Shown here: positions 55,484 to 58,767 of the stretch, in pieces
Layout of the letters: each line of letters begins with the position of its first letter
How positions within the stretch are numbered: position 1 is the stretch's first letter
NCBI GenBank assembly: GCA_000934665.2
Contig: KZ538099.1
Coordinates: 1-64,000 of the forward strand
DNA from: Catajapyx aquilonaris
Taxonomy: Eukaryota
Direction: 5' to 3'
Length of the DNA stretch: 64,000 nt
Position numbers and translations under genes: made by a program
The notes under the pieces: model-generated
Told to the model about the DNA's origin: nothing
Seen by the model: the letters and a program-made list of their open reading frames with translations, nothing else
Databases searched by the model: none

Positions 55484-56093
55484 ATGTTGTCATCCCTCGT
55501 TAAAGAGCATCAGGCCAAGCAGCAGTCGCACAAGGAAGAGCAAGGTACTAAAGTCGGGCCGGGTTCGGCACCATTCACACGAGGGGGGTGACTGGTCCAG
55601 TTCTAACAATGGTGCCAATCCAGTTCTCACATTGTTGCCAATCCAGTTCTAACAATGGTGGCAATCGAATAGGCTGGATGTGAGCAGTGTGTTGGCAACA
55701 CTGTGCATTGTTACATGTACATACAACAATGGGTAGTGTGGACCTCAATAAGTATGACCTGGTATGTATTGTTGCGTTGCAGAGCAGAAGCGGAAGGAGG
55801 CGTGCGTTGCGGCCAGCAACCTGACCCAGGCTCTGGTTGACCACCTGAACGTTGGGGTGGCCCAGGCGTACTTGAACCAGAAGAGGTTGGACGCGGAGGC
55901 CAAGCAGCTGTACCACAACGCGACCAACTTTGCGAAGCAGACGCAGCAGTGGCTGCATCTGATTGAGAACTTCAACGGGGCGCTGAAGGAGATTGGGGAC
56001 GTTGAGAACTGGGCGAGGAGCATTGAGACTGATATGCGCACAGTCTCGTGCGCTTTGGAGTACGCTTATAAGGTCACGCAGGAGGCTCCGTGA
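55484..56093 (+). CDS. BLOC1S1: BLOC-1/BORC subunit 1 (BLOS1/GCN5L1), 123 aa; exons 55484-55544 and 55783-56093
   Basis: MLSSLVKEHQAKQ...LTQALVDHLNVGVAQAYLNQKRLDAEAKQL...ALKEIGDVENWARSIETDMRTV..ALEYAYK. Confidence 0.96.
55596..55664. repeat. 23 bp tandem repeat x3 in the BLOC1S1 intron
   Basis: TCCAGTTCTAACAATGGTGCCAA / TCCAGTTCTCACATTGTTGCCAA / TCCAGTTCTAACAATGGTGGCAA. Confidence 0.85.
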
Positions 56094-58588
56094 TGGCGTT
56101 GCTTACGGCTGATTGGAGCCCGTTGGGGGGGCTGTATTTCCGGAAGTATGAACTGTATACAATGTGTTGGCCCGAGCAGCTGGGGCTGCTTGATAATTTC
56201 GTGGTGGCGGCCGCTCCGTACGGTGGCCCCATTGCGCTGACTCGGGATGAGCGCAAGTTCGTCAAGCTGCATGCGGTTCCAACAGCAAAGCGGATCATAT
56301 TCATATTCACATCGTCAGGCCAGCAGTTGTCGACTATCACTTGGCATGGAGGGCGTCTGGTTCGTATGGGGTGGTCCTCCAGCGAGGATTTGCTGTGTGT
56401 GCAAGAAGATGGAACCGTGCTGGTGTACGATCTGATGGGTAATTACAAGAGCTCGTTTGGGATGGGGCAGGAGGTCAGCGATACCAAGGTGGTGCAGGCG
56501 CAGGTGTTTGGGAGCCTTGGAGGGACTGGTGTGGCAGTGATGACCACTGCGCTTCGGGTGTATCTCATAAACAGTGTCCAGGAGCGGAAGCTGAGGAAGA
56601 TGCCTGAAGTACCGGGACTGGACAGCTTGCCTGCATGTTGGATCGTGGTGTCCCAAGAGCGGAAATCACGTGTACTGCTTGTGCGTGACAGAGACGTGTA
56701 CATCCTGGAGCATCTGGCGGAACAAGCGCAAAAGGCCTCTCCGAAGATCCCAGGTCGTATCACAGCCATGGCCGCCTCGCAGGATGGAAAGCACCTTGCT
56801 TTGTACACCGAAGCTGGATACCTGTGGGTTGGATCTGTCGACTTTCAGAAGTACTTCGAGTACGATGCCCGGTGCTTGGAGGTACCAAGGCAGCTGGTAT
56901 GGTGCGGCACTAAAGCTGTGATCTTGTACTGGGACTCGATGATCCTTGTGGTCGGGCAAGGTGGCTGCATTCAGTATGCCTACGATGCTCCTGTTGTGCT
57001 GGCAATAGAACCAGATGGTGTCCGTGTTGTTGGCTCCACTTTGCATGAGATGATCCAGTTGGTGCCGGATGTCTCACGTGAAATATTTCTGATTGGAAGC
57101 ATGGCTCCTGGGGCCATACTGCTTGAAGCCTCCAGGGAGTTTCAAAAGCGGAGTCACCGATCAGATGAGTATATCCGCATGGTTCGGGATGATCTCCGAG
57201 TTGCAGTGGACCAGTGCATCGAGGCAGCCGGTTATGAATACTCACCTGCCAACCAAAAAATGTTGATAAAAGCGGCGCAGTTTGGGAAAGGTTTTGTCTC
57301 TGACCACAATCCGGATAAGTACGTACAGATGTGCCGAACCCTGCGTATACTTAATGCTGTTCGAGACTACCGCCTGGGCATACCAATCACTTACGCCCAG
57401 CTGGAGCGACTCAGCATTCCGGTTCTGTTGGATCGTCTTGTGCTTCGTCGCCATTATTACCTAGCCATCCTGATTGCCAGGTTCTTGCGCATCCCAGACA
57501 TCGAGGGTGCCAGCCGCATCCTAGCTCATTGGGCCTGCTACAAGGTATCCCAGACCCACCTGGACTCGGACCAGATTGCATCTGATATTGCCAACAAATT
57601 GGGACAAGCTCCAGGCATTTCTTACAGTGAGATTGCCAGCAAGGCATCAGATGCTGGTCGTAAAGAGCTGGCCATCAAGCTTCTGGATCACGAGTCTCGT
57701 GCCTCAAAGCAAGTTAAGCTTCTGGTCACACTAGGCGAATTACCACAAGCTTTGCAGAAGGCAATTGAATCCGGTGATACTGATCTGATATATTTGGTGC
57801 TTTTGTCACTACGAGACAATATGTCAATGGGAGCATTCCAGATGGAGATACGCAACTACCCGGTAGCACAAGCCCTGTACATGAAGTACTGCAGGGATCA
57901 GAATATTGAGGGGCTGCGAGATGTGTATGTGCAAGAAGACGATTACAATTCCCAAGCCGCACTGCACATACAAGAGAGCTACCGTTCGACTCGGATCGAC
58001 TCAAAAGTAGCGTCATTGATGACCGCACATGATTGCTATCGAAAGGTCAAGAATGAATTTGCATCGTCAGCTGCCGACGACCAGGTTCGCTTGTTGAAAC
58101 AACAGGTCACACTAGAGGAGAGGCTGCACCGTGAGTTCCGTGAAAAGTCTCTTCACGACACCGTGCACCAGCTGGTCCTATGCGGAGAGGTGAAGCTGGC
58201 AGATAAGATGCGCCAGGAGTTCAAGATGTCCGACCACAAGTACTGGTGGATCCGCTTGTCCGCCGCAGGGGAGCTGGGTGATTGGGCTGACCTGCAGAGG
58301 TTCGGTGGACAGAAGAAGTCTCCAATCGGGTACGAACCATTCGTTGAAGTATGTCTCAAATACGGAAATAAGACAGAGGCTGAGAAGTACCTTCCCAAGG
58401 TACGTGACGACGTAAAGGTCCGCTACTACGTGAAGGCAGGTCTGTACGAGGAAGCCGCCCAGATCGCATTTGACCAGCGGGACGACCAGGCCCTCCTGTA
58501 CATCCAGAGCAAATGCGCTTCCAACCGCCAGCTAGTCGACAAGATCAACACCCTCAAAGGCCAACTCTCCTCCAGACGATACCGCTAA
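56093..58588 (+). CDS. VPS16: Vacuolar protein sorting 16 (HOPS/CORVET core), intronless, 831 aa
   Basis: MALLTADWSPLG..YFRKYELYTM.W, AAAPYGGPIAL, AVDQCIEAAG, KAAQFGK, RILAHWACYKV, GISYSEIA, KAIESGDTDL, KKSPIGYEPF. AATAAA at 58622-58627. Confidence 0.97.
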   Translation: MALLTADWSPLGGLYFRKYELYTMCWPEQLGLLDNFVVAAAPYGGPIALTRDERKFVKLHAVPTAKRIIFIFTSSGQQLSTITWHGGRLVRMGWSSSEDLLCVQEDGTVLVYDLMGNYKSSFGMGQEVSDTKVVQAQVFGSLGGTGVAVMTTALRVYLINSVQERKLRKMPEVPGLDSLPACWIVVSQERKSRVLLVRDRDVYILEHLAEQAQKASPKIPGRITAMAASQDGKHLALYTEAGYLWVGSVDFQKYFEYDARCLEVPRQLVWCGTKAVILYWDSMILVVGQGGCIQYAYDAPVVLAIEPDGVRVVGSTLHEMIQLVPDVSREIFLIGSMAPGAILLEASREFQKRSHRSDEYIRMVRDDLRVAVDQCIEAAGYEYSPANQKMLIKAAQFGKGFVSDHNPDKYVQMCRTLRILNAVRDYRLGIPITYAQLERLSIPVLLDRLVLRRHYYLAILIARFLRIPDIEGASRILAHWACYKVSQTHLDSDQIASDIANKLGQAPGISYSEIASKASDAGRKELAIKLLDHESRASKQVKLLVTLGELPQALQKAIESGDTDLIYLVLLSLRDNMSMGAFQMEIRNYPVAQALYMKYCRDQNIEGLRDVYVQEDDYNSQAALHIQESYRSTRIDSKVASLMTAHDCYRKVKNEFASSAADDQVRLLKQQVTLEERLHREFREKSLHDTVHQLVLCGEVKLADKMRQEFKMSDHKYWWIRLSAAGELGDWADLQRFGGQKKSPIGYEPFVEVCLKYGNKTEAEKYLPKVRDDVKVRYYVKAGLYEEAAQIAFDQRDDQALLYIQSKCASNRQLVDKINTLKGQLSSRRYR

Positions 58589-58767
58589 ATATCCCGTCAC
58601 CATTGTACCGTTTGTAATCACAATAAATAATAAGCCAATGCAGTTTGCTATCCATTAATGTACTACCCTCAGGATATTTCAGGCCCTATTTGCAATATTC
58701 AGGCCGTATTTAGGCGGACAGAAATAATTCGCACTTTTAATTGGAATTCGAATTAAACGCGGCGTGG

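Follow-up and report, generated by a model that had tools for sequence, protein, structure and literature searches.

The genes BLOC1S1 and VPS16 adjoin on one strand of the Catajapyx aquilonaris genome, such that the stop codon of the first overlaps the start codon of the second. Both lie in the stretch of DNA analyzed here, hereafter the window, which comprises 64,000 nucleotides (nt) of contig KZ538099.1 (assembly GCA_000934665.2, positions 1 to 64,000, forward strand). We propose that the pair is a dicistronic locus of the type annotated in Drosophila, in which one molecule of a shared mRNA would encode both proteins, and assign this reading a probability of about 0.6. The mRNA would be transcribed from one promoter upstream of approximately position 55424 and would lose a 238-nt intron within BLOC1S1; polyadenylation after the AATAAA at 58622 would then yield an mRNA of about 3 kilobases (kb) with both complete open reading frames (ORFs).

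The junction reads GAG GCT CCG TGA TG GCG TTG, where the BLOC1S1 stop TGA (56091-56093) and the VPS16 start ATG (56093-56095) overlap by one base, a common A. Both ORFs are complete and unfused, and occupy different frames of the same strand. For TGATG as a string of five letters chance is not at issue; what is non-trivial is the abutment of two complete, conserved ORFs. A preliminary description of this DNA had claimed the overlap, and the sequence bears it out in every detail.

Domain searches and alignments support the identity of both genes. The spliced BLOC1S1 frame comprises 123 codons and a stop. Its second exon alone matches Pfam GCN5L1 (E 4.2e-41, model positions 18-113 of 114), while alignment with homologues shows that the conserved N-terminus is contributed by exon 1 and that the C-terminal end coincides with that of a spider homologue. 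Insect and spider BLOC1S1 are 77-79% identical to it. VPS16 contains both Vps16_N (E 2e-111, model positions 2-410 of 410) and Vps16_C (E 6e-94, model positions 1-314 of 320), and its best matches in the protein database come from a cockroach, orthopterans and Timema (54-57% identity, 100% query cover), so that this database contains no VPS16 from a near relative of the organism. Alignment with 14 homologues (from insects, crustaceans, chelicerates and other animals) places the first and the last residue of the protein at their termini. Moreover, the frame is shut by a TAA at 56069-56071, 21 nt 5' of the ATG, so that an N-terminal extension would be impossible without splicing. Because the frame is closed by this TAA, we conclude that ATG 56093 is the ancestral VPS16 start. 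The gene assignments first proposed for the two ORFs are thus upheld by the GCN5L1 match and normal termini of BLOC1S1 and by the two domains and full-length alignment of VPS16. The same holds for the assertion that VPS16 begins at its conserved N-terminus with G at -3 and G at +4, to which the 14-homologue alignment and the sequence both attest. In a quick, midpoint-rooted tree, the VPS16 of the window falls outside a clade of 17 named winged-insect sequences and four others.

The evidence for a shared transcript comes from a public sequencing run, X1, the kind of which is not on record. In this run, 71% of sampled words of 55300-58700 were present, and its contigs were aligned to 53500-60500. 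Since these contigs skip one GT..AG intron in BLOC1S1 and three more in the gene that comes next downstream, four in all, we take X1 to derive from spliced RNA. A 551-nt contig joins 55424-55542 to 55781-56212 with no mismatches and no gaps. It starts 60 nt 5' of the BLOC1S1 ATG and, with the intron spliced out, runs through TGATG and 117 nt into VPS16. This fits what a dicistronic mRNA predicts; that both ORFs share a single molecule, with its promoter and poly(A) site, is our inference. Two further contigs (56320-56794 and 56838-58376) are collinear with the genome and free of joints, which fits an intronless VPS16. The contigs leave 56213-56319, 56795-56837 and 58377-58647 uncovered, and their depths are 9.8, 5.8 and 20.3; we draw no conclusion from the gaps or from the depths, which give no basis for ranking parts of a gene.

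The arrangement of polyadenylation signals is likewise consistent with a common 3' end. A hexamer scan found neither AATAAA nor ATTAAA in 55400-58621 and no ATTAAA before 58752. The first AATAAA downstream occurs 33 nt after the VPS16 stop, at 58622, as had been noted from the outset. Scans for core-promoter motifs, a weak test, returned neither a TATA box nor an initiator-like TCAGT or TCATT in 55215-56100; the only matches, ATCGAT at 55340 and TCAGT at 55214, both lie 5' of the contig start, with none inside BLOC1S1, and are too weak to use.

On such an mRNA, BLOC1S1 would be translated conventionally from AUG 55484, and VPS16 by the smaller share of 40S subunits that arrive at AUG 56093. 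We prefer a route in which the BLOC1S1 AUG is bypassed, which could happen by leaky scanning or by resumed scanning after a 12-codon upstream ORF (uORF), in which case the BLOC1S1 AUG, 2 nt further on, would be too close to use. A second route would be termination at the end of the full 123-codon ORF followed by reinitiation at UGAUG. Between 55424 and 56092, after removal of the intron, there are only three AUGs: 55443 (uORF), 55484 (BLOC1S1; A at -3, U at +4) and 56034. None in the BLOC1S1 coding sequence (CDS) is out of frame. Bypass would be aided by this lack of out-of-frame AUGs in the 370 nt between the two starts. The frame of AUG 56034 is only 19 codons long and ends on the very UGA that overlaps the VPS16 AUG. 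The AUG layout fits ribosomes bypassing the BLOC1S1 AUG, and we favor bypass over reinitiation. Coordinates of all features are compiled in Table 1.

Table 1. Features of the BLOC1S1-VPS16 locus (positions in the window).
Feature	Position	Strand	Basis
First exon as far as RNA reaches: 60-nt leader and 61 nt of BLOC1S1 CDS	55424..55544	+	Contig start; joint 55542/55544 to 55781/55783
uORF, 12 codons and TAA (55479-55481), ending 2 nt before the BLOC1S1 ATG	55443..55481	+	Sequence; inside RNA-derived contig; translation putative
BLOC1S1 coding exon 1 (20 codons and 1 base, 61 nt)	55484..55544	+	N-terminus aligns with homologues
BLOC1S1 intron, GT..AG, 238 nt	55545..55782	+	Contig joint 55542 to 55781 (cut +2), depth 9.8, one contig
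BLOC1S1 coding exon 2, TGA stop included	55783..56093	+	Pfam GCN5L1; covered by 551-nt RNA-derived contig
Only AUG between the BLOC1S1 and VPS16 starts; BLOC1S1 frame, shared stop 19 codons later	56034..56036	+	Sequence
TGATG, BLOC1S1 stop overlapping VPS16 start	56091..56095	+	Sequence; same letters in RNA-derived contig
VPS16 CDS, single exon, 831 codons and TAA	56093..58588	+	Domains, homologues; RNA-derived contigs collinear over 56093-56212, 56320-56794 and 56838-58376
AATAAA, first 3' of the BLOC1S1 start, likely shared poly(A) signal	58622..58627	+	Sequence, with no RNA contig over it; use putative

Several results weigh against this interpretation, at the levels of RNA, translation and conservation. 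At the RNA level, a contig across two genes could be a de Bruijn composite of two transcripts with a 31-nt overlap. No link joins the three contigs of the locus, and none reaches the AATAAA or the final 212 nt of VPS16. Variant hexamers inside VPS16 (CATAAA at 56566, GATAAA at 57265 and others) could end an mRNA that contains BLOC1S1 only. The original claim of a single bicistronic mRNA therefore stands in part: a spliced contig does cross the junction, but it is not one molecule and the 3' end of VPS16 is unreached. The accompanying argument that there is "no room" for a promoter or a 3' untranslated region was too strong, given that either could lie inside the neighboring gene.

These points lend themselves to the main rival account, in which two separate, overlapping monocistronic mRNAs are made. 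VPS16 would have a promoter in BLOC1S1 exon 2 or the intron, BLOC1S1 would use a non-canonical poly(A) signal inside VPS16, and the contig would be a composite. Such a contig is no evidence of a single transcript, and variant hexamers are available. In Drosophila, moreover, dicistronic loci are reported to produce monocistronic transcripts too, of both genes for 45 of 159 pairs and of one gene for a further 69 (PMC4528330). Set against this are the lack of AATAAA or ATTAAA over 3.2 kb, the sole BLOC1S1 contig being both spliced and unbroken as far as 117 nt into VPS16, and, as a weak test, the missing core-promoter motifs. We regard separate transcripts as unlikely, albeit the strongest competitor to a shared mRNA.

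With respect to translation, a purine occupies -3 in all three upstream AUGs, which would render leaky scanning inefficient. The shortage of AUGs in BLOC1S1 is non-significant, as synonymous-codon shuffles contained a mean of 3.0 ATGs compared to the two observed (P = 0.28). We also compared out-of-frame ATGs among BLOC1S1 loci taken from metagenome contigs, keeping 29 of 57 loci, with coding sequences that look intronless, and dropping 28 that had several segments, were incomplete or lacked an ATG at the match start. Loci grouped as having a TM2D-type gene closely after BLOC1S1 (n = 17) averaged 1.7 out-of-frame ATGs, with zero in 6/17, and loci grouped as lacking one (n = 12) averaged 3.4, with zero in 1/12, a comparison that is phylogenetically non-independent and confounded by GC content. 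Among the 12, three loci (L012, L049 and L050) are shortened by introns and one (L025) is misgrouped, since a TM2D gene does follow.

The TURBS (termination upstream ribosome-binding site) has UGGGA as its core, which is complementary to 18S rRNA. TGGGA is absent from the plus strand of 55287-56458, and predicted RNA folds were not unusually stable relative to shuffles (55950-56095, z 0.12; 56000-56140, z -0.37; 56090-56235, z -0.66). The locus has the stop and restart codons within a few nt of each other, as TURBS-type sites do, but shows neither an 18S-complementary core nor a structured context (z 0.12, -0.37) for the upstream element. Caliciviruses and influenza B reportedly use overlapping stop and start codons, as does SART1, an insect retrotransposon (UAAUG), and viral reinitiation after a long ORF is described as dependent on a TURBS element and that of SART1 on downstream structure (PMC10275272).

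If VPS16 were produced mainly by true termination-reinitiation at the UGA/AUG of a dicistronic mRNA, fixing the ratio of BLOS1 to VPS16, the geometry of UGAUG would match that of these three systems (PMC10275272). The VPS16 AUG has G at -3 and G at +4. The likeness extends to calicivirus VP1/VP2, influenza B M1/BM2 and SART1 all having the overlap after a long upstream ORF (PMC10275272). In contrast, BLOC1S1-VPS16 is a cellular pair in which no TURBS-like core or unusual RNA structure was found, whereas the known cases need one or the other (PMC10275272). The claim that the overlap couples the two proteins by termination-reinitiation thus finds no support in any feature tested, and we consider this route doubtful. 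A stricter version holds that the mRNA is obligately dicistronic and that ribosomes restart at the VPS16 AUG without a TURBS after translating the full 123-codon ORF, perhaps after an intronless VPS16 retrocopy inserted behind BLOC1S1 and replaced the parental gene. We judge this improbable; if true, it would bring bacterial-style coupling to a cellular gene pair of an animal, tying together the outputs of a BORC/BLOC-1 subunit and a HOPS/CORVET core subunit.

Two splicing-based explanations were also weighed. In the first, the acceptor for exon 1 would be a cryptic AG at 56080-56081, 11 nt 5' of the VPS16 ATG, and its use would remove nearly all of BLOC1S1. Exon 1 joined at 56082 would be in frame with VPS16, without a stop, and would keep the first 20 BLOC1S1 codons, although such a frame match arises by chance one time in three. 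In Drosophila, 130 genes reportedly have their promoter and 5' exons in common with a neighbor (PMC4528330). No such joint is present among the X1 contig joints, and the acceptor is poor, with pyrimidines making up only 50%, and T 28%, of the tract that precedes 56081. We therefore hold this to be very unlikely.

Spliced-leader operons occur in nematodes, tunicates and some crustaceans. An operon resolved by trans-splicing, with a leader added just 5' of the VPS16 ATG, would suit an intergenic distance of zero, and the position of VPS16 in the tree outside winged insects is compatible with a spliced-leader lineage. Even so, both X1 contigs with 5' ends (starting at 55424 and 58856) begin on genomic letters, with the proviso that contigs can lose ends, and no loose end lies near 56081 among those listed. 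Trans-splicing at this position would also cut the BLOC1S1 ORF before its stop. We rate this account as highly improbable.

Least credible of all is an artefact, i.e., a misassembled junction or a VPS16 that is a dead retrocopy. What speaks for it is that VPS16 extends for 2.5 kb uninterrupted, in contrast to BLOC1S1 and to the downstream gene, which has three introns supported by RNA within 1.6 kb (58856-60481). Yet the RNA-derived contig has the same letters at the junction, with zero other letters and zero gaps, which answers the concern about misassembly raised in the preliminary description. The nearest N within the window is at 55032, with none over 55033-64000. VPS16 is intact over 831 codons, with both Pfam domains end to end and 100% query cover in its best matches. 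Its intronless state suggests a retrocopy origin or intron loss, which is speculation; inspection of the sequence after 58627 showed no poly(A) remnant of a retrocopy.

Comparative searches likewise fail to reinforce a conserved dicistronic arrangement. The metagenome contigs provided 57 BLOC1S1 loci, 53 of which extend for 300 nt or more past the BLOC1S1 match. None is closely related to the window: the identity of full-length BLOC1S1 does not exceed 83%, with two short partial matches at 92-93%. VPS16 was found in none of the 57 when the window VPS16 was used as tblastn query (E <= 1e-3). The check on conserved adjacency that had been called for at the start is hence answered in part, as adjacency is absent from these loci but none of them is close kin. 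A separate tblastn search with cockroach and Timema VPS16 gave one minus-strand match (L037, E 0.065), which we took as chance. There was no Vps16 domain in 51 long BLOC1S1-containing proteins, and no GCN5L1 domain in the 120 VPS16 relatives listed of 723 that passed the threshold. This absence of fused proteins is weak evidence, since the frames differ at such junctions and fusions may go unpredicted. To judge from these sequences, the adjacency of BLOC1S1 and VPS16 looks lineage-specific.

The metagenome loci also display a different arrangement. A TM2D-type gene lies 3' of BLOC1S1 on the same strand in 22/57 loci (L003-L011, L015-L017, L019-L022, L025, L026, L028, L030, L032 and L037). The distance from stop to start ranges from overlap (ATGA in L025, TAATG in L032) through mostly 4-60 nt up to approximately 350 nt. 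In four of the 57 loci (L004, L008, L011 and L016), a gene with a DALR_1 domain follows 6-110 nt after the TM2D gene. Many of the TM2D-type contigs have no visible intron in BLOC1S1. BLOC1S1 thus appears to head a tight array of two or three genes in a group of eukaryotes.

Drosophila provides the closest precedents. FlyBase annotates 159 dicistronic pairs in D. melanogaster, equal to 2.5% of protein-coding genes, and for 45 of the 159 both proteins are said to come from the dicistronic transcript only (PMC4528330). Reported distances from stop to start extend from negative (overlapping) to more than 1 kb, with polycistronic-only loci spanning -34 to 319 nt; the entry "OVERLAP" occurs 28 times in File S1 (PMC4528330). 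The preliminary remark that such overlaps are rare in animal nuclear genes accordingly sits poorly with insects, given these 159 pairs, some of them overlapping (PMC4528330). File S1 of the same paper lists CG33649/DNApol-gamma35 as "OVERLAP 4 nt" and Snapin-CG9960 as "all di/polycistronic, 18 nt" (PMC4528330). Snapin, a BLOC-1 subunit, is elsewhere reported to be dicistronic with an essential gene (PMC12444909).

Like BLOC1S1-VPS16, the FlyBase loci consist of two complete genes, unrelated in sequence, on one strand with a distance from stop to start near or below zero. Snapin-CG9960 and CG33649/DNApol-gamma35 share with it an upstream cistron of approximately 100-150 codons, and Snapin, as BLOS1, is a BLOC-1 subunit. 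Both are BORC subunits as well. The FlyBase loci differ in comprising other gene pairs and in having cDNA clones and start-site data behind them, whereas the BLOC1S1-VPS16 mRNA rests on one contig. Vps16A is located on 3R in D. melanogaster. A study by Wall, Phillips and Kelly (2005, J Biol Chem) reportedly, by its title, concerns the dicistronic mRNAs of Drosophila stoned and Snapin. Compared to these mRNAs, BLOC1S1 keeps one conserved in-frame AUG (56034), and its AUG shortage is, as given above, non-significant. Crosby et al. (2015; PMC4528330) cite that study for "resumption of ribosomal scanning". The names blos1, Vps16A, CG30077 and CG8454 have no occurrences in the six supplementary files of the Crosby paper that were searched, File S1 included (PMC4528330).

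More distant parallels are found in other lineages. Green-algal nuclear bicistronic loci resemble the present one in having a small upstream ORF and in the leaky scanning proposed for them (PMC7896298, PMC11892635), but belong to another kingdom and bear no homology to BLOC1S1-VPS16. Human BLOC1S1-RDH5 similarly places BLOC1S1 upstream in a transcript that runs into a same-strand neighbor; in contrast, it is listed as noncoding, joins separated genes by splicing, has another partner and contains no stop/start overlap (PMC5793191). Our protein search also returned fused BLOC1S1-dehydrogenase gene models in fish and bats. A literature search, with most subscription journals outside its scope, found no published BLOC1S1-VPS16 transcript. 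The pair therefore looks new, while the dicistronic kind is already known.

A few further features of the region were recorded. The BLOC1S1 intron contains, by eye, three imperfect tandem copies of a unit of about 22 nt resembling CCAGTTCTAACAATGGTGCCAAT (55590-55670). The region as a whole is compact: the first RNA-supported base of the next same-strand gene (58856) lies 268 nt past the VPS16 stop and approximately 230 nt beyond the AATAAA of 58622; this gene encodes an AAA ATPase domain at 61354-61821. Upstream, at 54862-55225, several X1 contigs match at 90-95% identity; their joints are unusual, lacking GT..AG, and 21-22 foreign letters separate the two sides. These matches probably reflect a dispersed repeat transcribed from other copies. 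Further away in the window, 21575-22113 is a short-unit tandem repeat around a 62-N gap (21829-21890), with long repetitive ORFs in several frames on both strands.

The products of the two genes act in related processes. Knockout of BORC is reported to lower the recruitment of HOPS to lysosomes (PMC5640200), which supports the functional link between the BLOS1 complexes and HOPS that was suggested in the first description. Shared function is described as atypical of Drosophila dicistronic pairs (PMC4528330). We view BLOC1S1-VPS16 as a functionally suggestive example rather than a new principle. For annotation, gene finders that require intergenic space or one ORF per mRNA could mis-model the pair. 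If our interpretation is correct, the locus would be a compact test case for the translation of an 831-codon ORF behind a 123-codon ORF with a one-base overlap, and would show, in a natural animal setting, one promoter serving a pair of trafficking genes that are deeply conserved and functionally linked.

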